Shown: positions 3,812 through 46,169, counted from the first letter of the stretch. The stretch is DNA of 64,000 nucleotides from an uncultured virus (IMG/VR IMGVR_UViG_3300028746_000001) (IMGVR_UViG_3300028746_000001); one strand, 5' to 3'. Program-made: numbers and translations. Notes: generated from the sequence alone by a model not told the origin.

Positions 3812-5563
3812 ATGTCCTACTTTTTCAACGGTCGCGAGTGGATTACTCCGGCCACTATGTCGGCTGTAAACGACAGCGCACTGGCTCCGACCAATGCGAA
3901 CGTCGGCAACACCACTTGCTATCTCGGTCAATCGACCGGTGGCGAGCCCGGCGTTGTGCTGTCCTTCGGAAGCCCGGACGAAGCAGAAGCCGTGCTGGTA
4001 TCCGGCGAGCTTCTGACGGCCGCAATGAAGGCTTTCAGTGCGAGCAACGAGACGGGCGGCCCGGCGACTGTTGACGTTATCCGCGTCAACCCGGCCACTC
4101 AATCGACCCTCCAACTGGTTGACACGAACAGCGCTGCGTTGATCAATGTTGCGTCGGCTGACTGGGGCCTGCGCACGGCACAAATCAAGCTCACGGTTGA
4201 TCCGGGTTCGGTTAAAGGTCTCGGTGCGACCGTTGCGCTTGGTGCGGCTTCGTACTCGACCGATAACTTGTACGCAAACCCGTTCTCGGTCGCGTACACG
4301 GGTGGCGCTGCGTCGGCTGAAATGACGATCACGCCGACGACGGTTGTTCTTCAGGCCCCGGCCGGAACCGTGGTTGCAACGATCCCGCTCGCGACCTACC
4401 CGACTGTCGGCCAGCTTGTCGATTACATCAACACGATCGCGGGCTTCGACGCCGTCGTAAATGGTGGATCGATCAATGCCCCGTCTCTCAACGGTCTCGA
4501 TTCCATCACGGCGGCAAGCGTACTGGTCACGGGCCCGAACCCGAACGGCGTCGAAGTTACGGCGAACCTCAACCAGCTTATGAACTGGATGAATTCGCTC
4601 AATGGCTTCTCGCAGCCGCTTATCACGGCTACGTATGCCCCGGGGTATTCCGGCCTTCTCCCGACTTCGATTCCCTTCACGTACCTGAAGGGCGGCTCGG
4701 ATGGCATTACCACTGCTGCGGATTACGACTCGGCTTTGAACGTGCTGCAAGCCAGCGACGTGCAGTGGCTCACGCCGATTACGGCTGACCCGGACGTGTG
4801 GGCGATGGTGGATGCGCACGTGCAGTTCATGAGCACGGTAGGCGGCATGGAGCGTCGCGCAATCGTTGGATCGGCTCTGAACACAACGGATGCCGAAGCG
4901 ATCGCGTTCGCATTCAACCTGAATTCGGACCGCACTTCACTGGTCCACTTGGGCTACTACGATTACGACCTGACCGGCACTCTGACTGGCCTTCAGTTGT
5001 ACTCGCCGTACCTGACGGCCGCTGCGATTGCTGGCGCGTTCTCTGGCGTTTCGCCGGGCACTGCCATGACCAACAAGGCCATGGCTTTCTCTGGCCTGGA
5101 GCGCTATCTGAACGTCCCGACGGATACCGATCCGCTGCTTCAGGCTGGCGTGATTCCGTTGGTGAAGGCGAAGACCGGCTACATGGTCGTGCAGTCCATC
5201 TCGACGTGGCTTGTCAATGACAACTACGACAAGGTCGAACAGTCGGTGGGCTGGGCGCTGGACTACACGTGCCGCACGTCGCGCGAAATTCTGGACCCGC
5301 TCCGCGGCGCGAAGATCACGCCGATTGCATTGGGCCGCGCTGCGACGCTGGTTGAAACGAACCTCAAGGCGCTCGCCGTTCCCGATCCGCAAGGACCGGG
5401 CGTGCTCGCTGGTGACGCCGACAACCCTCCCTACAAGAACATCGTCGCGTCCGCTGCTGGGACCGCGATCGCTGTGTCTTTCCAGTGCTCGCCTGTTCTG
5501 CCGGCGAACTACATTTCAGTCACCGTCTTCGCCGTGCCGTTCACTGGCACCGCGTCGGCATAA
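3812..5563 (+). CDS. Contractile tail sheath protein
   Basis: 583 aa; GQSTGGEPG...GELL N-terminus, LKGGSDG, LLQAGVIPL and C-terminal PVLPANYI motifs. Confidence 0.9.
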   Translation: MSYFFNGREWITPATMSAVNDSALAPTNANVGNTTCYLGQSTGGEPGVVLSFGSPDEAEAVLVSGELLTAAMKAFSASNETGGPATVDVIRVNPATQSTLQLVDTNSAALINVASADWGLRTAQIKLTVDPGSVKGLGATVALGAASYSTDNLYANPFSVAYTGGAASAEMTITPTTVVLQAPAGTVVATIPLATYPTVGQLVDYINTIAGFDAVVNGGSINAPSLNGLDSITAASVLVTGPNPNGVEVTANLNQLMNWMNSLNGFSQPLITATYAPGYSGLLPTSIPFTYLKGGSDGITTAADYDSALNVLQASDVQWLTPITADPDVWAMVDAHVQFMSTVGGMERRAIVGSALNTTDAEAIAFAFNLNSDRTSLVHLGYYDYDLTGTLTGLQLYSPYLTAAAIAGAFSGVSPGTAMTNKAMAFSGLERYLNVPTDTDPLLQAGVIPLVKAKTGYMVVQSISTWLVNDNYDKVEQSVGWALDYTCRTSREILDPLRGAKITPIALGRAATLVETNLKALAVPDPQGPGVLAGDADNPPYKNIVASAAGTAIAVSFQCSPVLPANYISVTVFAVPFTGTASA

Positions 5564-6778: not shown

Positions 6779-9700
6779 ATGCCTGAAGTAAAAATTGGTG
6801 TAGGAGCAAATGCGGGTGGAGTTGACCAGGCGATTCAAAAGATCACTGCGTCTATGAACAAACTTGGCTCTGCCGTGGCCGCGAACCAGAAGCTCAAATT
6901 CGAGCCGACGGACGTGAAGAACATGGCGCGCGACCTTGACCTCATCAACAAGCAGTTCAAGCAGACTCTGGCGCTCTCCGCTCAGGTGCGCAACGCCCTG
7001 AAAAACTCGGGGCAGAGTGATCTCCATATCTCGCAAATCGATTGGTCGAAGACTTCAACCGACCCGCGAGCGGCGCAGCGCATGCGCGATCGCGCCTTCA
7101 TGCATACGGTGCGTGGCACGTCGCTCGACCCGACCCTATCGAATGATGTAGATGGCGACGGCAACATCGTGCCGCCCGCGCCCCCGGCCAAGCCGCCAGC
7201 CAGCGGCGGCAGCGGTGGTTCTGGCGGCGGTAGCGGTGGTCGCCGGCCGCCCGCTGGTGAAGACGAGGGCAGTCGCGGCGGCGGATTCGGTCGCGGTGCG
7301 CGCCGGTACGGTCGCGGGATGGCCGGACGCACGGCGGGCGCATTCAGCGGCGGTGTCGGCGGCCCGGTTGGTGGCATGCTTCAAGAGGGCATCCAAGGCG
7401 CAGGCACTGGCATGGAGGTTGGCGGCCTGCTGGGTGGCCTCGGAGGCGCTGCCGCTGGGTTAGTCGGCGGTGGCCTTATCGCGGCCGCTGCGATGGCTGG
7501 GAAGGCCGTCTCTGAGGGCATCGACCAGGCGAAGGACCGCAACCTCGATCTGGACTTGCTGAAGCGCTCTTTGGGCGACCTCGGCGTGTCGTTCAAGGGT
7601 TTGAGTGACGCGTCTTGGGTAGCCGCGCGGGACCTCGGAATGGCGAATGGCGAATTCGTCAAGATGGAGCAGCTTGCGAACTCCGCGAGCGGGGGTGCAT
7701 ACCGCACGCCCGACGAGTTGGCTGGCGCAACGCGTTCCGGTGTTGATATCGCTCGCGCATACGGCCTGCAGCCGGGGCAGGGCGTCGCCTTCACGGCGGG
7801 CATGCAGCGCATGGACGCGCACCAGAACAATAAAGAACTGGCGGCCACGCTCGCCGAAGCAATCGTCAATACGCAGGGAAAGGCGACCCCGTCTGAAGTT
7901 ATGCAGGCGATGCAGGGATTCGCGGCGCAACAGAACCGGTTCAATTCCGGGGTGGTTGACCTCAATCGCTTCGGGAACGCCTACTCGTCAATGCTTGGCG
8001 TAGATGGCATGACGGCAGACCATGCCTCTTCAATCCTCGGTCAGGCGAACGCGTCCATGCAGCAAATGGGCGGTTCTGAGGCATCGCGCAACTTCACGAT
8101 GCAGGCGTTCGGCTCGCTCGATCCGATTCGCGCGGCGATGCGTGCAGAGGGTGGACTCTTTAGCAACGGGCTCGATAACCGGGATATCAACGGCTACATG
8201 TCGCAACACGGGTCCAAGGACTGGGAGACTCAGAACAAGGGCCCGGAGGGGACCAACTTCTCGGTAATTCGTGGCGCGTTCGACAATGCTTACGCCGGTC
8301 GTGGCCGGTACGGCGCCGAGATGGAGCTTGATGCCGAGAAGAACTATTTCGGCCTGAAGTCGTATGCCGACACGGCCTCGTTCATGAACATGAGCGACTC
8401 GGACCATAGCGGCATTTCGATGCTGTTGAAGAACGCGGGGATTGATCTTAAAGACGTTCGCGAGGGCGGAATTCAAGCGCTTGCGGGCATCTCGAAGACG
8501 ACGGACTTCCAGGGCGTCGATGACCTCTACAGGAAGGGCCCGGACGCCATCCGCAACCGCAAAGACATGAGTGAGTCGGACCTGTCTTCGCTCGATCGCG
8601 CAGAGAAGAGTGGTGACTTCGAGAAGTTCCGCAGCGAACTGGTGCGCGTCATGGCTGGAAAGGGCCAAGAGGATGACGCCGGTTCGACCCAGCGCACGAT
8701 CGACGCGAACATTTCCGACATGAAGACGATGGTCGGCGAGAAGCTGATCCCGTACACCCAGGCGATGATGGAAGGCATCCTCGCCATGGCGAACAAGATC
8801 CCTGGCGTCAACATTGCCGATCCGTCTTTGATTGGTCCGCCGAAGTCCGCCATGGGCGAGTCACTTCCTGCGGGATCAACCGTAGTGAGGGACATGGGTA
8901 GCGCCGGGAAGATTACGCGCGGTGGCGACGGCTTGCATACGGCGACCGGTGGCACTTGGTGGGACAAGGCCGTTGACGCGACGGCGGGCGGTCTCAATTG
9001 GCTGAAGGGTCAGGGGCAAGACGGCTCAGGCGACCCGCTTGGCATTCGCAGCAATAACCCTCTGAACATGCTTCACAAAGGCCAAGAGGACGTTTATTCG
9101 GACCCGACGGTCGGCATCGCTAAGGCGACGTCCAATCTGGAGAGCGGCTATCGCGGCCTGACGCTCGCGCAGATCCAGGACAAGTGGACGGGCGGCGCAC
9201 GTACCGGCAACACGCCGGAAATGATCGCCAATTACACCAAGCTTATGACGGGAGCGACGGGCCTGAAGGCTGGCGACGTTCCGAATCTTGACGATCCAAA
9301 AGTCGTGGCTGCGCTTATGAAGGGGATGATCCGGGCCGAGAACGGAAAGATGCCTTACTCGGACGACCAGGTCAACGCGGGCGTTGGCGCTGGAATGGGG
9401 CGGCTCTCTACGAAGGGATTTCATCCCGATATGTCGATTGCTGAAGAACCTACCTCGAAGCAACCGAAGCCCGCTCCCGACGATATGACGATCGTTTCTG
9501 AGCCCGCCGAAAAGCAACCGAAGCCGGCTCCCGACGACATGACGATTGTCGCAGAGACCGCCGAAAAGAAACCGAAGCCTGCTCCTGATGACATGACGAT
9601 TGTTGCAGAGCCGGCGGCAAAGATTCCCGCAAAGGACCGGTCCACGTCTGCCGCAGATGCCTCCGCAGCGGCTTCCGCATCGAAGGTTGGCTCTGCCGCT

Positions 9701-26584: not shown

Positions 26585-26655
26585 TATTGGGACAAATTCC
26601 GATCACCGCTATTGGGACAATTTCCGATCATTCTTATTGGGACATTTCCCGATCA
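26585..26655. repeat. Three auxiliary iterons (21 bp, 25-bp period) downstream of rep
   Basis: TATTGGGACA(A/T)(A/T)T(T/C)CCGATCA at 26585, 26610 and 26635; reverse complement of the origin iterons. Confidence 0.9.
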
Positions 26656-27444
26656 AAACAGGTGCTGCTGAGCGCTGTTTCCGAACCGGAACTCAAGCCC
26701 GATAACCTTCCGGCCCGCTTTTCGGGTATCCCACTCGATTTTATAGCCGTCCTTTTCTGTCAGTTCCTTCACAGCGGGCTCAATAATCCGGCGTCGCATG
26801 TCCTTGAAGTTCTTCCGGCAGCTTTCGCTCGCGTCCATGGCGTGCGCGAACTCATCGATATCGATCCTGAGAAGCCCGGTGGACTTGAACTGAGCGATTA
26901 GCTCCAGCAGCCGCCAGGAAAACACTGAACGCAGCGCGGCGGCCTGAGACAGCTTGTATGACGTGAATTGCTCGCGCAAAAGCACCAAGTGCGGCACAAC
27001 CTCATGCCAGAAAGCGATCTCGATATAGCCCTCTCCGTTCGAATACGTCGCACGGCCGACCCAGCGCATTTTTTCCTGCTTTGGGCCTTTCGGGCCGGGC
27101 TTCTCGTAGCGAATCCATCGCTCTGAAAGCGTGCTCTCTGCCGCCTTCAGTTCCTCGTAGGCAGTCGTCGGGTCAATCTGGAACGTCTCGGCGAATTCCA
27201 GCGCGGAAATTCGCGCTACGAGAGGCTTATTCATGTCCGGAACGCGCTTGCTATCAATCTTCGAAATGCAGCAGGCCACAACGCGCTTCTCTGCCAGCGA
27301 CAGACCTTGTGCGGCACGAGTAAGGACGTTGCTCATATTGACATGGCGCTCTGACGCCGTAGCAGGTAATGCATCGGGAAGGGTTTCCGCGAGCGCAGAG
27401 ACAATCACTTCTGGCTCAGGGACAATGACTTCTGACAGGGTCAT
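26653..27444 (-). CDS. Plasmid replication initiator, Rep3/RepB family
   Basis: SNVLTRAAQGLSLAEKR..., FTSYKL, SWRLLELI, RRRIIEPAVKEL, GRKV; likely start ATG at 27444. Confidence 0.92.
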   Translation of the reverse strand: MTLSEVIVPEPEVIVSALAETLPDALPATASERHVNMSNVLTRAAQGLSLAEKRVVACCISKIDSKRVPDMNKPLVARISALEFAETFQIDPTTAYEELKAAESTLSERWIRYEKPGPKGPKQEKMRWVGRATYSNGEGYIEIAFWHEVVPHLVLLREQFTSYKLSQAAALRSVFSWRLLELIAQFKSTGLLRIDIDEFAHAMDASESCRKNFKDMRRRIIEPAVKELTEKDGYKIEWDTRKAGRKVIGLEFRFGNSAQQHLF

Positions 27445-27452
27445 GGGCAATG

Positions 27453-27484
27453 AAATGGGACAAGTTAGGTACGATGTCCCATTT
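27453..27484. promoter_or_regulatory. Inverted iteron half-sites (Rep autoregulation operator)
   Basis: AAATGGGACA-N12-TGTCCCATTT just upstream of the rep ATG. Confidence 0.75.
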
Positions 27485-27541
27485 GTACCTTGGAGTCTGA
27501 AAAACGTCAACGTTTTCCACGGCTTACGGCTCAATTTTGGC

Positions 27542-27737
27542 TGTGGATAACGACCGGAAATTGTCCCAATAGAAAATTTGCGAGCCCGGAATTTGTCCCC
27601 CTATGACCGGGTTTTGTACACCAATGACCGGAACTTGTCCCAATAGCACCCCGCAAAGCCTTACCCAGTAAGGCTTCCAGCCTTTTAAAAACGGTTTAAA
27701 AACGTCTTAAAAAACGCACGCGGAGAGCTGTGGACAA
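27542..27737. other. Iteron-type origin of replication
   Basis: DnaA box TGTGGATAA (27542); four 21-bp iterons GACCGGAAnTTGTCCCAATAG-like (27552, 27584, 27605, 27626); AT-rich TTAAAAACG-like repeats (27683-27716); second box TGTGGACAA (27729). Confidence 0.9.
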
Positions 27738-27824
27738 CCGTCGGTTAGCACGGTCTCCCGCGCGTGGGCGTCGAGACTCATCCTGTCATCAACCGTTTTG
27801 AAAGGCGGCTTGCAAGGGGGGCGG

Positions 27825-28142
27825 TCATTCGTGGCCGTGCTTCTTTTTCAGCCTTGCCAGTTCGGCACGCGCCCCGGCTTGGACGATTTCGGTTATCGGG
27901 ATGCCGGAAAGCTTCGAAAAATCGCTTATTTCCCAAAACAGAGCTTCGTCCATTCGGAGGTTGACTGGGCGAGTCGCCGGTTTTCGGGGGAATTTGGGAA
28001 ATCCGGGGCTCACAGCAGCCTCGCGGCCCTCCCCTGCACCGCTGGCCTCAACTGGCTCGTTCGAGGCCGCTGGGGGCGATTCTGCGGCGAGCACAAAGTC
28101 CATTGGGTTCCGGAAACCGCCCTTCTTGTCTGCGGCGCTCAT
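27825..28142 (-). CDS. Ribbon-helix-helix partition protein (ParG-like)
   Basis: C-terminal PVNLRMDEAL...ITEIV; coupled to parA. Confidence 0.75.
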   Translation of the reverse strand: MSAADKKGGFRNPMDFVLAAESPPAASNEPVEASGAGEGREAAVSPGFPKFPRKPATRPVNLRMDEALFWEISDFSKLSGIPITEIVQAGARAELARLKKKHGHE

Positions 28143-28819
28143 TCTGCGACCTCCTCTTCCTCGTCGGCTAATACCGGGTTTTCAATGATGCGGCTAAGCG
28201 CGACCATTTCATCAATAGCCTTGGGGTCTGGCGAACTGAATTCGGTCACCGCGCGCCCTTCGCTCGCGACCATGCGAAAAGCCTTCCGCTCACTGAGAAA
28301 CGTCTTCAAAAGGCGGTATTGCTTGAGCCCTGAGAGGGACTCGCGCATATCGGCGGCCTCGCTCGAATGCGCGTTTGTCGGCACGCGATTCATGATCGCG
28401 ACGGCCTTGAGATCGTGGTTGAATCCGCGCGCCTGCTCCACGAGCCTGTCCATTTTTGCGAATGTGTAAATATCAAACTGGCTCGTCTGCGCCGGCGTGA
28501 CGATAATCCCGGCCACCAGCATCGCGCTCCGAACCTCTGGTGAGTCGGCTCCGCGCGTGTCGATGATGATGTCATCGTACTTCGGGATAAGCGCCCTCAC
28601 CTGCGAGTCAAGCCTCTCGCCAAAGATGGAGACGCACGTGATGGCGGGCTTAACCTCCTCTGCGGCACGGATGTTCACCCATAACGTCGCGGACGCTTGC
28701 GTGTCCGCGTCTACCAGCAGCACGTCGCGCCCCTTGCCGGCCAGCATTGCAGCGTAGCTGACCGCCAAGGTGCTTTTCCCACTGCCGCCCTTCTCCCCGC
28801 CAAACAGGACAACACTCAT
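28139..28819 (-). CDS. parA: ParA partition ATPase (type Ib)
   Basis: KGGSGKST, LLVDADTQ, YDDIIIDT; no N-terminal HTH. Confidence 0.93.
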   Translation of the reverse strand: MSVVLFGGEKGGSGKSTLAVSYAAMLAGKGRDVLLVDADTQASATLWVNIRAAEEVKPAITCVSIFGERLDSQVRALIPKYDDIIIDTRGADSPEVRSAMLVAGIIVTPAQTSQFDIYTFAKMDRLVEQARGFNHDLKAVAIMNRVPTNAHSSEAADMRESLSGLKQYRLLKTFLSERKAFRMVASEGRAVTEFSSPDPKAIDEMVALSRIIENPVLADEEEEVAE

Positions 28820-40666: not shown

Positions 40667-41404
40667 ATGAGCGAAATTGTTCCGTTTAGTTTCGATGGCG
40701 CAGAAGTGCGCTCGGTAGTGGTAGACGGCGAGCCGCACTTTTTTGCGCGCGACGTTGCACTGACGCTTGGCTATGCGAATCCGCTGGAGGCTGTGAGGAC
40801 GCACTGCAGGGGAGTGAGGGAATTCCTCACCCCTACGGCTGGCGGCAATCAGAACGTCCGCGTCATCCCCGAGCGCGACGTGTACCGCTTGGTAATGCGC
40901 TCGAAGCTCCCGGCTGCCGAGCGTTTTGAAGAGTGGGTTGTCGGCACGGTGCTGCCGTCGATTCGCAAGACGGGCTCATATAGCGTCGCGGCTCCCGCGA
41001 TTCCGAGAACTTACGCCGAGGCGCTCCGTCTCGCTGCCGACCAAGCCGAGGAGATCATCCAGAAGGCCGCGCAACTCGAAGCGCAGAAGCCTGCCGTCGA
41101 GTTCGTTGAGCGCTACGTCTCCGCCGAGGGTAACAAGGGTGTGCGTCAGGTCGCGCAGTTGCTCAACGTGCCGAACGAGCGCGAGTTCATTCAATGGCTC
41201 ATCGACTCAGGCTTCATGTACCGGCTCGAAGGCGTGCTTACGCCGATGGCAAGCCAACGCCACACGGGCCGCTTCGTCATCAAGGCTGGAGTGAGCCGTA
41301 CGAGCGAGCACGCATACAACACGGCCAAGTTCACGCCGAAGGGCGTCGAGTGGATCGCCGGGGAGTGGGCGAAGCACCAGGTCCGCCATCCGGAGTTTGC
41401 ATAA
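40667..41404 (+). CDS. Bro-N / KilAC antirepressor
   Basis: DGEP.F.ARDVA..LGY.N...YRL.MRS.LP.AERFEEWV...VLPSIRKTG; P.VEF...FTPKG..W. Confidence 0.9.
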   Translation: MSEIVPFSFDGAEVRSVVVDGEPHFFARDVALTLGYANPLEAVRTHCRGVREFLTPTAGGNQNVRVIPERDVYRLVMRSKLPAAERFEEWVVGTVLPSIRKTGSYSVAAPAIPRTYAEALRLAADQAEEIIQKAAQLEAQKPAVEFVERYVSAEGNKGVRQVAQLLNVPNEREFIQWLIDSGFMYRLEGVLTPMASQRHTGRFVIKAGVSRTSEHAYNTAKFTPKGVEWIAGEWAKHQVRHPEFA

Positions 41405-41484: not shown

Positions 41485-41775
41485 ATGCGCGCAACTGAGT
41501 TTGTAGATGAAGTGGCCCGCAATACGCGGTTGACGACTCCCCAAGTCGAAGAGTGCTTGAGAGCCGTCCGCGATCTGTGCGAGCGCGAGGTCCGCGCCCA
41601 CGGCAAGGTCCGCATCCCCAAGCTTGTCGATATCAAAATCACGCAGGTCTCCGAGCGCATCGTGCGCAATCCGAAGACTGGCGCTGAGTGGCTCGAAGGT
41701 CCGAGCACGCGCCTCTATGCAAAGCCATCCCCGATCTTTACTCGCCGCGTCAAAGGTGAGAAGCAAAGCATCTAA
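41485..41775 (+). CDS. HU/IHF-family DNA-binding protein
   Basis: ERIVRNPKTG arm; 96 aa, basic. Confidence 0.8.
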   Translation: MRATEFVDEVARNTRLTTPQVEECLRAVRDLCEREVRAHGKVRIPKLVDIKITQVSERIVRNPKTGAEWLEGPSTRLYAKPSPIFTRRVKGEKQSI

Positions 41776-41979: not shown

Positions 41980-42014
41980 AGTGCTTGCGCAGCAGATTAC
42001 GCGTTTGATATAGT
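41980..42014 (+). promoter_or_regulatory. Promoter of the RNA island, overlapped by an operator
   Basis: TTGCGC-N18-TATAGT; AGTGC-N7-GCAGA at 41980-41996. Confidence 0.55.
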
Positions 42015-42225
42015 TCTCCCAACGCAGAACGCAGCAGAATTTTTCTTCCGGTCCTTGCGTGTGGATGTGCCTCTCCGGGTTGCTACCACATGCGGGATGA
42101 ATGCCAGGAGTATCCGGATAGGACTGGCCTCCAAAGGGCGACGGTGAATTAGCGTTGAACGACGTACAACGAGCACGCCCCATAGCTCCGTCCGCGTTGA
42201 CCGGCGATACGGTCACAAGTTTCTA

Positions 42226-42317
42226 TGCGGGGTCTTCTAGTGGCTCAGGAAACGGCTAGGCAGCCCGGATTTATCCGGTCCCCGGCTGAGACGCAGGTTC
42301 GAATCCTGTCCCCGCAC
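42226..42317 (+). ncRNA. tRNA-like RNA with extended anticodon arm
   Basis: Acceptor TGCGGGG/CCCCGCA; D arm TTCT-AGTGGCTC-AGGA; T arm GCAGG-TTCGAAT-CCTGT; no 7-nt anticodon loop. Confidence 0.7.
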
Positions 42318-42320
42318 AAA

Positions 42321-42985
42321 GTTCCGTCGATGGGCTGACAACCTACTGTCTTAAAAACGGCGTTGCTGCTCTGAGCCATCTAGGAGCAGTCGGGGGCCTA
42401 ACCCGTAAAGATGGGCTTAACGTCAGAGCCGAGGATTTAGGCTAAACGGTAGCGCGGTCCAAGAGGGTTGTAGCTTGGAAGACTGCACTTCTCGTTGGGC
42501 GTGACTTGCTGGTAGAGAGAATCAGCCTTCTGTGAAACATTGCCGATCGTGTTCGCGGACAGTAATTGATAGGCGGTTGTCGGAGCAACCTATTGAATCC
42601 CGACTGGGGGCCGTAAGCTCCCAAAGAATTGCACGGAAGTGCTCAGGATGGTCTGGGGAGTCCGACGAGGGCCGCGTCTCGGTAAAAACGCGGGAACGAT
42701 TATTCCCGGGCTGATTTGGGCAGGGTGGCGGGGGTGCAAACCTCGTCGCGCAGGGTTCGATGTCCCTGACTGGGAGCCAGAATGCGTAAGCCGCTGGTAT
42801 GAGAAGGCGAGGTAGGACGACGGGTGGCCTTGAAAACCACTGGCGAGTCTGAGAAGCCGAAGCACAGAGAGGGTGGAGCATTGTCATCCGAGACTATAAG
42901 CGGCGTCCGACCCACGACACGGGTCAACAAATTGCAGCAGTAAAGAGGTCGCTTGATGATGACTAAGCCCCACTCGACCGGGAAC
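42321..42985 (+). ncRNA. Candidate large structured ncRNA (~665 nt)
   Basis: 5' and 3' ends pair (16 bp with bulges); dense hairpins, GNRA loops and long-range loop complementarities; no credible ORF. Confidence 0.7.
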
Positions 42986-43026
42986 ACGTACATCCGTCTT
43001 GCCCGACGTTAAAGGGCCTCGAATTT

Positions 43027-43111
43027 GTGCAGGTGGGTGAGTGGTTAAAACCAGTGGATTGTAAATCCGCCGTCTCTGACTTCGTAGGTTCGAATCCTAC
43101 CTTGCGCACCA
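43027..43111 (+). tRNA. tRNA-Tyr(GTA)
   Basis: GTGCAGG/CTTGCGC acceptor; GTGGA-TTGTAAA-TCCGC anticodon arm; long variable arm; GGTTCGAATCC; ACCA end. Confidence 0.92.
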
Positions 43112-43561
43112 AGAATAATGCTTCCCGCTCAGATTGTACCGAGTGCATGCCTTCCGGTCGGGACACAGGAAAGGCCCCCAAGCGCCGGGGTATTAAAGCA
43201 GCGTGGTAGCTGCTAGTAGCGCCTTGAAAAGCCGCGAGTGGCTCGCGAATGAGCCGCCCGCAAAGCGCATTCTCTGAGTGCTCTTTGCGGGTCTGGATGA
43301 CTACCCTTCAAGACTGACCTTATAAATGTCCATGAAGGGCGCATTTGATCCCGCGTTATTACGGATTCGCGTGGCCTGCGTTATCGGGCCGCCCACGAAG
43401 CGCATTTTATGAGTGTTCTTCGTGGGCAATATGCCGGATGTCCGTAACCACGAAGCCCATAAATCGGAGCCTTACGGAACCCGTAGCAGGCGGGGAGACC
43501 AGTGAGAGTCTGGAGCAACGAAAAACGCAGCGTGGTCCCGGCTATACGGTTCACAAGTTTT

Positions 43562-43637
43562 CGCCGGGTAGCTCAGGTGGTAGAGCGGCAGCTTGAAAAG
43601 CTGTGCGTCGGAGGTTCGAATCCTTCCCTTGCGGCCA
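43562..43637 (+). tRNA. tRNA with GAA anticodon (Phe), atypical acceptor stem
   Basis: TAGCTCAG.TGGTAGAGC; GCAGC-TTGAAAA-GCTGT; GGTTCGAATCC; GCCA end. Confidence 0.85.
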
Positions 43638-43872
43638 GAATTCCGGGGCACGCTGATAGACCGGTGGGGGAATCAAAGCCCAGCATGTCTATTCGTTCTT
43701 GTGAGTTATGACGAGACATAAACTCTACGGCGTTCGTGCCGTATCTCGCGAACCGGCTGGCTTCGTCAAACGCCCTGCGGCGCAACGCAGTTGGAATGAT
43801 TGGGTGGTGCGAAGTCCTGGTCCTTCCGCCAGAATTTAGAACCCGTAGTGTAAGGCGACTTCGCAGCCGCCA

Positions 43873-43967
43873 GTGGTAACGCCGTGAGGCGCACCTGACT
43901 TGCTGGTGGAAAGTAACCAGCACCTTCAAGCGTGCCCAGTTGTGTCGGTTCGACTCCGGCAGGCCAC
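43873..43967 (+). ncRNA. tRNA-like RNA with extended central arm
   Basis: GTGGT/GCCAC closing stem; CGCC-GTGA-GGCG; TGCTGGT/ACCAGCA arm; T arm GTCGG-TTCGACT-CCGGC. Confidence 0.5.
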
Positions 43968-44138
43968 GACCTAAAAGCCAAGCAAGGGATCAGCGGGCAC
44001 ACTTGAGGGGATCTAGCCTTTGCGTTACCCCATACGCCTTTGGATGCTAGATGCCAAAGAGACGCCATAGTATTAGGCCGCTCTCGCATGCTGCGTACGC
44101 ATGCAAACCTTTCTAATGACTCTCTAGGATTCCTAAGC

Positions 44139-44474
44139 ATGGATACGATTCAACAAGCCGCTGGCGCGGTCGAAGGCGATGTCGCTGCAGTTCAAACTGC
44201 TGACGCAACGAGCGGCGCTGTAGCGGCCGCAGTGGTCGGCGCGACGGAAGTTGGTGGTGTTGCCGCCCAAGTGATCGACGCAGCCGCTCAAGGCGCTACG
44301 GAAGCCGCTGACGCTGCACCGGGCATCGAGGCTGAAGCTAAAAACATGACCGACAGTGTTTATTCGAGGGCGGATACGCTGTTCAGCAAGGTCAAAGAAG
44401 AGATCGAAGGTCTTGTTGGACTCGCGGGCAGCGACTGGCATCTGCTGAAGGAAGCCATCGTCAAACACCTGTAA
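44139..44474 (+). CDS. Ala-rich hypothetical protein
   Basis: MDTIQQAA... after AGGA. Confidence 0.6.
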   Translation: MDTIQQAAGAVEGDVAAVQTADATSGAVAAAVVGATEVGGVAAQVIDAAAQGATEAADAAPGIEAEAKNMTDSVYSRADTLFSKVKEEIEGLVGLAGSDWHLLKEAIVKHL

Positions 44475-44554
44475 GTCGATGTAGGACCGCTGTATCGCAC
44501 CAAGCAGTAAGGCGCCCGGAGATCCCGGGCGTCTCCATTTCTACGCGAGGAAAC

Positions 44555-44995
44555 ATGGAACTGAAGATCAAAAAGCTGGACCCGCGCGCGGTCGTTCCGG
44601 AATATGCCACGGCCGGCGCAGCGTGTTTCGATCTGGTGGCGCTTCCCGGTGAGCCGTTTGAGTTGCATCCCGGGGATAAGCATGCATGCATTTTTCGCAC
44701 AGGGCTCGCGTTCGAAGTGCCGCCCGGCTGGGTGATGTCGATCTACAGCCGCAGCGGCCACGGATTCGCGAAAGCGATACGTCTCTCGAACTGCGTAGGG
44801 CAGATTGATTCGGACTACCGTGGTGAGGTCAAGGTTGCGCTGCGTTGCGATGGCGACGTGCGCGGGCATATCAATGGCGGTGATCGGATCGCGCAGGCTC
44901 GGCTTGAGCGTGCCGACCAGGTGCAGTTCGTGGTTGTAGAGGAGTTGACGGACACAGCGCGCGGCTCTGGTGGTTTCGGGAGCACTGGATCGTAG
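44555..44995 (+). CDS. dut: dUTPase (trimeric)
   Basis: AACFDL, RSG, GQIDSDYRGE, GDRIAQ and RGSGGFGSTG motifs. Confidence 0.96.
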   Translation: MELKIKKLDPRAVVPEYATAGAACFDLVALPGEPFELHPGDKHACIFRTGLAFEVPPGWVMSIYSRSGHGFAKAIRLSNCVGQIDSDYRGEVKVALRCDGDVRGHINGGDRIAQARLERADQVQFVVVEELTDTARGSGGFGSTGS

Positions 44996-45006
44996 CCTGC
45001 AGAAAC

Positions 45007-45034
45007 AACAAAGCCCGGTTTCCCGGGCTTTGTT
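45007..45034. terminator. Bidirectional terminator
   Basis: ACAAAGCCCGG-TTTC-CCGGGCTTTGT between convergent genes. Confidence 0.75.
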
Positions 45035-46169
45035 CATGGCTTCGGTCGCCGGCGGTGCTTTGCGTGACGAACCTCGATGCCTGCCGCGCGCCGCTCGGCG
45101 CATATCTCTGCGTAGAGCGGTGAGACGTAGATTGCAACATGCGTGAGCTTGCAGAATTTCGCCGCGGCGGGGACCTTCTCCCCGGCCCGAATCATTGCGA
45201 TCGCCGACAGCATGCGTTCGCTGGTTTTGTTCATGCGCGCTTGGCTTCGATCATGGCCACGAGCGCCACGTCATAGCAGAGATAGTCGCCCCAGTGAAAG
45301 TTGGCGCTGATGGCGTGCAATTCGGGACTGTCGTCCCACTCTTGAATCACGGCGTGCAGAACCGGGAAACTGTCCGGGTCCGAGTGGCGTGCCTTCACTT
45401 CACGCCAGTACGCATTGAATTCATCGCGCACCTTCACGGCTTCGAGGAACGAGGGCGCGGCCACGATATCGTCGGGCCCTTCGATGTTGAGCATCCACAG
45501 CTTCGTGAGTTGCGCTTCACGCGAGTAGCGAACGCCAGGCACCGAATCGAAGTTGCCCATGGAGAGCGGTTTGCGGGCCTGATGGCCGATCGTGAGGATG
45601 ATGCCGTCCTCTTGTGCGCAGCGGATAAGCTGCAGCAGCTTGACGTGGTATGCGTATTCCTTGCCGATGAAAACTTTGCTCACAACGCGACTCCGTATTG
45701 AGTTTCTTCTATGTCGCCTACCGATACGGTGACGACGGGGTGAATGCGGCCAGCGATCCACAGCTTGAGCGTGGCGCCGTTCTTCAGTGCTTCCAGTTCC
45801 TCTTCCGTCGGCTCCCACGCGGAGACCATGAACGGGCCGTTTTGGGTCATTACGTCGCGGATTGGCAGGGCGTTGCATTCGCCATAGCTGCCATCCCAGC
45901 CCACTGGAGCGCCGAGCGCCCGCGTCTCGCCTTCAATTCGTTTGATTTGCATACTTCTCCCGCTCCTCTTTGGTCCAGTGGTGGTCCGCGAAGTGCCGTG
46001 CGGCCTCGCTGATCGGAACCCACTCGTAGCATTGCCGCCCGTTACTGAAGACAAAGCAGCCTTGCGAGCGCTGAAACACGCGGATCTGCTCGCCGTGTTT
46101 CTTCGTCACCCTGCGGTCGCCTTGCTTCGGCTGCTTCCGCGCCGGGCCATACGAAATATGGATGCGCAT
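45034..46169 (-). CDS. Run of four small hypothetical genes (45034-45234 HTH-like; 45231-~45683; 45680-45952; 45933-46169)
   Basis: Overlapping stop/start junctions on the minus strand; individual starts approximate. Confidence 0.5.

Follow-up and report, generated by a model that had tools for sequence, protein, structure and literature searches.

A conserved structured non-coding RNA region with an embedded tRNA-like module in the tRNA island of a peat phage carrying plasmid genes

GOLLD and ROOL are large structured RNAs that cluster in phage tRNA islands and have recently been shown to build RNA-only cages. Smaller products of such islands include species 1 and 2 (rnaC/rnaD) of T4 and RNA1 of T5, non-decoding RNAs of ∼120 to 140 nt that are cotranscribed with the phage tRNAs and released by tRNA processing. 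In some GOLLD members, the 5' part is described as variable, the 3' part as conserved, and the linker that joins them as containing a tRNA (bioRxiv 10.1101/2024.12.08.627333; PMC12990946), and a mean length of 581 nt is given for ROOL (PMC5737381). Here we analyzed a 64,000-nt stretch of DNA, called the window below, from an uncultured virus (IMG/VR IMGVR_UViG_3300028746_000001). An earlier, sequence-only reading of the window had proposed a structured non-coding RNA at 42321-42985, within the tRNA island of a phage-plasmid; the structured RNA and the island were borne out, and the phage does carry Rep3, ParA, and tail sheath genes. Our comparison supports, with moderate confidence, a selectively conserved, locally well-folded non-coding RNA region at 42321-43026, which we consider, also with moderate confidence, to be a new family within a kind of RNA already known from phage tRNA islands.

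The only other lineage in which we found the region is L004, a complete phage record of 93,887 bp with terminal repeats (IMG/VR, G002). The two phages are syntenic, with 73% identity across coding DNA, and they provide the two full sequences available for comparison. Fragmentary variants came from peat metagenome contigs, with partial third versions from contigs of four peat runs, in which at least three further lineages can be discerned as fragments; these were read by position from difference tables, and their rows are incomplete (24 difference rows not shown). From 5' to 3', the order is tRNA-like element 1, D1, a variable hairpin and insert, D2b, a CCA-ended module, D3, and tRNA-Tyr. The parts are as follows:

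42224-42317, + strand: tRNA-like element 1 (TLE-1), with acceptor stem, D arm, and T arm; a long irregular arm replaces the anticodon arm
42321-42336/42966-42985, + strand: P1, proposed closing helix of 14 bp
42343-42452, + strand: D1, 5' domain of five helices
42343-49/42446-52, + strand: P2, outer helix of D1
42359-64/42419-24, + strand: P3, within P2
42366-71/42384-89, + strand: P4, within P2
42391-94/42402-05, + strand: P5, within P2
42427-30/42440-43, + strand: P6, within P2
42454-42525, + strand: linker, with hairpin GCGGUC.../...GACUGC, a 19-nt invariant block, and hairpin P8
42491-42509, + strand: the invariant 19-nt block of the linker, CTCGTTGGGCGTGACTTGC
42509-13/42521-25, + strand: P8, hairpin with loop RGAGAGA
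42526-42620, + strand: variable insert, which hardly aligns with L004 and has a 25-nt indel
42621-42703, + strand: central block D2b, with a 42-nt invariant run (42623-42664) holding GCAC-GGAA-GUGC and a hairpin at 42672-76/42689-93
42704-42779, + strand: tRNA-like module 2 (TLE-2), resembling tRNA-Cys (GCA) in the window and bearing a discriminator plus an encoded CCA
42780-43026, + strand: D3, 3' domain up to tRNA-Tyr
42783-42803, + strand: invariant block of D3
about 42816-42849, + strand: variable hairpin of D3
42858-42906, + strand: conserved block of D3, ∼50 nt
42909-42925, + strand: hairpin of D3
43001-43017, + strand: hairpin in the conserved tail of D3, which reaches tRNA-Tyr

The region is a family absent from Rfam 15. 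At the gathering score, the 64-kb window gave only two tRNAs and neither GOLLD nor ROOL. Relaxing the threshold to E ≤ 10 over 3,001 bases added solely a 21.4-bit tRNA-Sec-like match at 42225-42317, and over 816 bases it gave five matches below 20 bits, none of them to GOLLD, ROOL, tmRNA, RNase P RNA, or introns. The L004 copy searched at E ≤ 10 likewise showed no GOLLD, ROOL, tmRNA, RNase P, or intron, the tmRNA model aligning to the T arm only (9.3 bits). Thus, where the sequence-only reading had hesitated between a divergent GOLLD or ROOL and an undescribed class, the latter stands with respect to Rfam 15, and membership in GOLLD or ROOL is not supported, neither model matching at E ≤ 10. 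No description of an RNA of this kind in phage-plasmids was found in the literature searched.

The likeness to GOLLD (RF01998) is that of a large non-coding RNA in phage or prophage tRNA islands. Here, too, a tRNA-shaped module lies between 5' and 3' parts, a variable insert sits in the 5' half, and the region, flanked by a tRNA-like element on one side and tRNA-Tyr on the other, belongs to a phage whose genes include sheath, baseplate, Rep3, and ParA. The differences are that the GOLLD model is unmatched at E ≤ 10, that the region measures 665 to 706 nt whereas GOLLD often exceeds 800 nt, that its 3' part is short (247 nt) and shows no folding signal (z of +0.2), and that the embedded module is not a functional tRNA. 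The 3' part could not be aligned to the conserved 3' domain of GOLLD (P14-P27). ROOL (RF03087) shares a similar length, the phage/tRNA context, and many hairpins with GNRA loops, but its model is also unmatched at E ≤ 10, and the pseudoknots proposed for the present region are not conserved. Only one multistem junction of the region (D1) is well supported, beside the cloverleaf. A highly divergent GOLLD or ROOL lying beyond the reach of the Rfam models would account for the shared island context, the similar size class, and the tRNA-shaped module between parts, as in some GOLLD linkers (bioRxiv 10.1101/2024.12.08.627333; PMC12990946). Given no match at E ≤ 10 on 816 or 3,001 window bases or on the L004 copy, and a part after the module of just 247 nt without a folding signal, we consider this explanation very unlikely.

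Within the island, the only sequences that align between the two phages are the RNA stretch, the tRNAs, and one further tRNA-like element; the island spacer 43114-43840 gave no blastn match. Identical runs of 42, 40, and 30 nt occur in 693 nt, compared with five runs of at least 30 nt in 5,811 coding nt. These invariant runs fall in loops and junctions, and the differences between the window and L004 cluster in stems. The consensus folding energy was -162.4, versus -131.2 ± 7.5 for column shuffles (0/100 reached the observed value) and -114.8 for the reverse strand. We also used a test without hindsight, in which pairs with a probability of ≥0.8 were predicted from one phage alone and then read in the other. 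Among the pairs that varied, 34/78 were kept on the + strand, 19/69 on the - strand, and 339/1,202 in 16 coding controls (Fisher P = 0.0036); the best single coding control reached 0.40. The structure that we drew by hand, with both sequences visible, has 115 pairs, 31 of which vary; 23 of these stay paired (14 by two-sided changes) and 8 break, and slid controls gave 0 to 2 two-sided changes.

The region is non-coding, and its RNA is on the + strand. Tblastx against L004 scored alike in all six frames, gaps in the alignment shift the frame (11 of 13 are not multiples of three), and the open reading frames (ORFs) of the region had no Pfam match below an E value of 0.05. The earlier description of the domain as ORF-free does not hold literally, since ORFs reach 121 aa (42522-42887 on the - strand), and holds in the sense of non-coding. 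That the region acts as DNA (through binding sites, as an origin, or as a packaging signal) or encodes a small protein could be imagined from these ORFs, from invariant blocks that might be protein-binding DNA, and from the HU-like gene just upstream. However, the two strands are asymmetric in both consensus energy and the pair test, and the helices of D1 and the central block contain 13 G-U pairs among 116 cells, each of which would read as A-C on the opposite strand. The frame-shifting gaps, the absence of a Pfam match, and a 58-aa + strand frame that is interrupted by a stop in L004, as read from the alignment, also argue against it, and we give this explanation very little credence.

For D1, the consensus folding z (42337-42455) was -2.98, a value reached by 2/200 column shuffles, and its 27 pairs include four two-sided and three one-sided changes that remain paired and two that break, against 0 to 1 in slid controls. 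P4 exists in three paired versions, CUGCUC/GAGCAG in the window, CGCGG/CCGCG in L004, and CUCACG/CGUGAG in a peat contig. Its loop can pair with 42408-42413 (-11.7 kcal/mol against 42405-42420, 3/500 shuffles), and this potential is invariant. In the linker, the GCGGUC/GACUGC hairpin is weakly kept, 3/10 pairs breaking in L004, and P8 has again three versions: CUGGU/AUCAG in the window, CCAGU/ACUGG in L004, and GGGGU/ACCCC in peat contig X21. The insert at 42526-42620 is probably dispensable, because one peat contig has 23 nt in place of 42508-42620 and retains only P8.

Upstream of D1, TLE-1 matched tRNA-Sec with 21.4 bits and was called by ARAGORN only at a relaxed threshold; its L004 counterpart (7675-7779) scored 27.2 bits on the tRNA model, whose cutoff is 29. 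In L004, this element ends ...CGCA-A-CCA immediately before GTTCC, whereas the window copy is followed by AAA. One acceptor pair, read by eye, changes from G-C to A-U in L004. The long arm of TLE-1 differs between the two phages.

The central block D2b had a folding z of -2.87 (2/200 shuffles), and its hairpin CCGCG/CGCGG is replaced in L004 by GUGCG/CGCAC, two pairs being changed on both sides. Of the GNRA loops reported from the window alone, GGAA (in GCAC-GGAA-GUGC) and GUAA (in GC-GUAA-GC) are true tetraloops; GCAA instead lies within the 7-nt anticodon-like loop GUGCAAA of TLE-2. This CCA-ended module, inside the proposed domain, had been missed by the sequence-only reading, and it divides that domain into pieces of 383 and 247 nt. 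In TLE-2, the acceptor stem and T arm are accompanied by a D hairpin of small size and an arm of 8 bp, and a discriminator and the CCA are encoded. ARAGORN called it as tRNA-Cys(gca) only at the relaxed setting -ps80 and not at default, and the Rfam tRNA model (RF00005) gave no match at E ≤ 10 (cutoff, 29 bits). The cloverleaf of the module had a consensus folding z of -4.79 (0/200 shuffles), and of its 22 pairs, 16 are identical in L004 and the remaining 6 keep their pairing, 3 of them after a change on one side and 3 after changes on both, none breaking. The arm differs in sequence in L004 and retains its pairing. The shape of the module is conserved and its decoding not, because the 7-nt loop of the window is matched in L004 by a 15-nt loop on a 7- to 8-bp stem at the anticodon position.

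The 3' domain D3 contains identical runs of 40 and 19 nt. The hairpin at 42824-42840 exists as GUGG/CCAC in the window, GUCGC/GCGAU in L004, and GCGA/UCGC in a peat contig, and the pair 42910-42924 changes from A-U to G-C in L004 and again in a peat contig. The RNA unit is better given as 42321-43026 than as the 665 nt first proposed, because conservation does not stop at 42985 and extends as far as the next tRNA begins.

Three long-range pairings are of interest. The first is P1, whose strands GTTCCGTCGATGGGCT (42321-42336) and AGCCCCACTCGACCGGGAAC (42966-42985) had been proposed to close a single domain and are indeed present. The predicted duplex has an energy of -19.9 kcal/mol, a value attained with only 2 of 500 shuffled 3' strands; of the 668 windows into which the region was divided, none pairs better with the 5' end than does the 3' end, and 13 of the 14 pairs are identical in L004, the other changing from G-C to G-U. 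Clamping of the ends by P1 is plausible, and a single closed 665-nt domain is possible, if on balance doubtful. The second joins the invariant blocks 42491-42509 and 42783-42803 (-19.2; 5/500 shuffles). The third, the strongest complementarity of the region, would pair 42640-42662 with 42700-42724, in the 5' half of TLE-2 (-25.6 kcal/mol; 0/500 shuffles; best partner). In both phages, the predicted minimum free energy (MFE) fold favors this pairing over the cloverleaf by ∼7 kcal/mol, and two differences between the window and L004 in this stretch are compatible with either fold. Three pseudoknots had also been suggested from the window, and their complementarities exist there (two were tested and were reached by 3/500 and 0/500 shuffles), but they are broken or unconserved in L004: ACAACCT/GGGTTGT and GTCTCGG/CCGAGAC each lose 3/7 pairs, and GTCGGA falls in the dispensable insert.

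Several results weigh against a conserved structured RNA region, or against parts of it. Identity between the window and L004 is 73.6% in the RNA region and 73.0% in coding DNA, so identity alone is uninformative. Single-sequence folding energy is ordinary (z of -0.91 on the + strand and -1.38 on the - strand). Two-sided changes in the RNAalifold structure numbered 14, against 14.2 ± 3.4 after shuffling; being equal to the shuffled mean, this count is no evidence. When the whole-region MFE structure of one phage was transferred to the other, 38 to 40% of it was kept, only slightly better than the 19 to 41% for coding DNA, and a statistical covariation test is impossible with two full sequences. 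The stems listed by the sequence-only reading were all located, namely, CTACTGT/ACGGTAG (42343/42446), GGCGTT/AACGTC, CTGCTC/GAGCAG, GCGGTC-CAAG/CTTG-(GAA)-GACTGC, GTCATC/GATGAC (42883/42958), and AAGCGGC/GTCGCTT (42898/42948), yet among the pairs of its seven stems that vary in L004 (13), 6 are kept and 7 break. D3 alone (42780-42985) gave a z of +0.21, which 114/200 shuffles reach. As for the long-range pairings, P1 is beyond a covariation test because it is nearly invariant, the block at 42491-42509 prefers other partners to that at 42783-42803 (rank 33 of 630), and this pairing and that of 42640-42662 are likewise nearly invariant.

Identity equal to that of coding DNA is also what would be expected if the region were a set of decayed tRNA genes with spacer, functionless and alike through recent shared ancestry. 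The three tRNA-like relics in the island, the tRNA content that differs between the two phages, and the restriction to two known lineages would suit such decay as well. However, the other island spacers have diverged past alignment, the differences in the region cluster in stems with pairing kept, identical runs of 30 to 42 nt lie in loops, and three hairpins each exist in three paired versions. We therefore regard decay as quite unlikely.

The region could also consist of several small RNAs in a row, each independent of the others (D1, the central block, TLE-2, and pieces of D3), that tRNA-processing cuts would release one by one without a closed 665-nt RNA being formed, with P1 a chance or minor pairing. 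The CCA-ended module in the middle of the region fits this explanation, as does the local nature of the folding signal, which is significant for D1, D2b, and TLE-2 and not for the linker, the insert, or D3. Consistent with it, 95 to 113 nt between modules can be lost, and P1 lacks covariation. On the other hand, the 5' end has no better partner anywhere in the region than the 3' end (2/500 shuffles), all modules co-occur in the same order in both lineages with no isolated copies of D1 or of D2b with TLE-2 in 45 sources and four related cultured phages, and in the window as in L004 the thermodynamically preferred fold joins the central block to the 5' half of TLE-2, tying neighbors together. 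This modular explanation is a real contender, though we hold it to be less probable than not. As it stands, the region looks composite around an embedded tRNA look-alike rather than like a proven single giant RNA.

The family is very rare within the collections searched, as pattern scans, a survey of Ant loci, and covariance models gave only L004. Exact copies were present in IMG/VR and JGI peat metagenome contigs as well as in 24 DNA runs from peat, with no RNA run listed among the latter. An Ant relative is encoded at 41 non-self loci, of which one, that of L004, carries the RNA. Blastn against a phage collection matched 10 records, solely through the tRNA-Tyr part, and none in a plasmid collection. 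Exact-pattern scans of viral contigs with the invariant blocks and a gapped motif found only the phage itself and L004, three further 18-mer matches being due to chance; the scans of metagenome contigs gave two identical copies and no new variant, and those of genome contigs gave 0 matches. A scan with a 23-nt motif of a third lineage, taken from the peat contigs, gave 0 matches. Outside the two phages, covariance models of D1 and of D2b with the tRNA-like module had a best E value of 0.56 in 45 sources and gave nothing below 1.4 in phages Touem01, Dolphis, PHB04, and ST4.

The 64-kb window is a myovirus-type phage with plasmid genes. Its features include the following:

3812-5563: tail sheath, structural gene
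26653-27534, - strand: Rep3 initiator
28139-28819, - strand: ParA
40667-41404: Ant, rightward operon
41485-41775: HU-like protein, rightward operon
41984-42013, + strand: promoter-like site TTGCGC-N18-TATAGT, in a conserved block; L004 keeps both hexamers (TTGCAC ... TATAGT)
43027-43111, + strand: tRNA-Tyr(GTA), called by ARAGORN and by the Rfam tRNA model (53.3 bits), 3' boundary of the RNA region
43562-43637, + strand: tRNA-Phe, called by ARAGORN/Rfam, same island
44555-44995, + strand: dUTPase (PHROG E value of 2e-51)

The structural set also includes baseplate and tube-initiator genes, and a CI-like repressor, a Cro-like protein, and an O-like replication protein are encoded. The sheath shares ∼50% identity with its counterparts in Pseudomonas and Bordetella phages of ∼92 kb. 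The Rep3 and ParA genes (26653-28819) adjoin phage recombination genes. The closest relatives of Rep3 are a plasmid protein of Burkholderia ubonensis (79% identity) and one of a Ralstonia plasmid (73%), and since the nearest Rep3 proteins lie on such plasmids, this points to a host among the Burkholderiaceae in peat. Downstream of the HU-like gene, ∼2.2 kb is gene-free and is followed by a 111-aa ORF and then by the dUTPase gene. Because the latter is on the + strand, the tRNA island lies within a + strand operon and is not flanked by converging genes. A long ORF at 44360-45103 on the - strand is an antisense artifact, the genuine gene there being that of the dUTPase.

The position of tRNA-Tyr is occupied in L004 by tRNA-Glu. 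The tRNA sets around the RNA differ, with Met, Glu, Tyr, Asn, and Gly in L004 (7595-9412) and Tyr and Phe in the window (43027-43637). A palindromic hairpin, GCCAGGAGUAUCCGGAUAGGACUGGCC, is found at 42103-42129, in the leader between the promoter-like site and TLE-1, and is near-identical in L004. Another tRNA-like element, the third of the island, lies at 43894-43971 and has an "anticodon" loop of 8 nt, and 43841-43965 is conserved with L004 9414-9533 at 80% identity; the 5' part of this element (GACUUGCUGGU...ACCAGC) resembles the invariant block and hairpin at 42503-42525 (85% over 25 nt). Two hairpin-forming repeats of 39 nt (43253-43291 and 43388-43426) are 82% alike and 135 nt apart, and their stems differ yet pair (CCCGCAAAG.../CCCACGAAG...). 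One peat contig fuses 43288 to 43424 and has one repeat unit fewer.

Overall, we favor, as somewhat probable, the reading that 42321-43026 is a conserved structured non-coding RNA region that is part of the phage tRNA operon and is excised by host tRNA-processing enzymes. Polycistronic tRNA transcripts are described as being matured by 3' processing and RNase P (PMC2190699). Transcription of the island would likely start at the conserved promoter-like site near 42000, which a promoter consensus scan did not call (0 promoter-like sites called). The 5' end near 42321 would arise from 3' processing of TLE-1 and the 3' end near 43026 from RNase P cleavage at tRNA-Tyr; no intrinsic terminator was found on the + strand 3' of the region. 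The body would then fold into the five-helix 5' domain, the variable hairpin and insert, the central block, the CCA-ended module, and the 3' domain, and P1 would be able to clamp both ends. TLE-2 may be one more site of cleavage, in which case the products, of ∼383 and 247 nt, might remain joined through P1. Alternatively, it may be retained, hidden from RNase P by pairing of the invariant block 42640-42662 with its 5' half. By analogy with GOLLD and ROOL, the likeliest mode of action would be that of a stable scaffold whose invariant loops and tRNA-shaped module are offered to a tRNA or a component of translation in the host, a proposal that we make with low confidence.

Other tRNA-associated RNAs offer partial parallels. 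The three tRNA-like elements here fit the description of the RNAs of the T4 and T5 tRNA clusters, but the region is 5 times longer and has non-tRNA domains. Similarly to tmRNA, a CCA-ended tRNA-like part is joined to a long structured RNA; ARAGORN found no tmRNA, however, and the Rfam tmRNA model matched nothing beyond the T arm. A suspected tmRNA motif came down to a 13-nt match, and the local alignment with Escherichia coli ssrA scored 21, not above shuffles (19.6 ± 2.2), so this candidate was rejected; motifs resembling RNase P RNA were likewise rejected, being without Rfam support. In plant mitochondria, tRNA-shaped t-elements are described as marking sites of RNase P and 3' processing that make the ends of neighboring transcripts (PMC1920247). 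The same role may apply to the tRNA-like elements here, with the differences that t-elements belong to another kingdom and that their neighbors are mRNAs.

A further proposal, which we regard as unlikely, is that the region represents a new large phage RNA class with a tRNA-shaped module inside, as in GOLLD, and a switch built in through 42640-42662. If it were true, pairing of 42640-42662 with the 5' half of the module would hide it from RNase P and give one P1-clamped RNA of ∼700 nt, and release of the module would give the cloverleaf and two pieces, so that the phage would use the tRNA-processing machinery of its host to determine which form its RNA takes and perhaps how it assembles. With two lineages, most of the long-range claims are not yet testable. 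The source, a peat phage-plasmid of beta-proteobacterial type, is remote from those of the known classes, which come from Lactobacillales, the rumen, and Mycobacterium, and each unrelated new family found at the same place helps to ask what tRNA islands select for. An embedded, non-decoding, CCA-ended tRNA look-alike with a strong masking pairing would connect tRNA processing with the way in which a large phage RNA matures, in a concrete form that can be tested.

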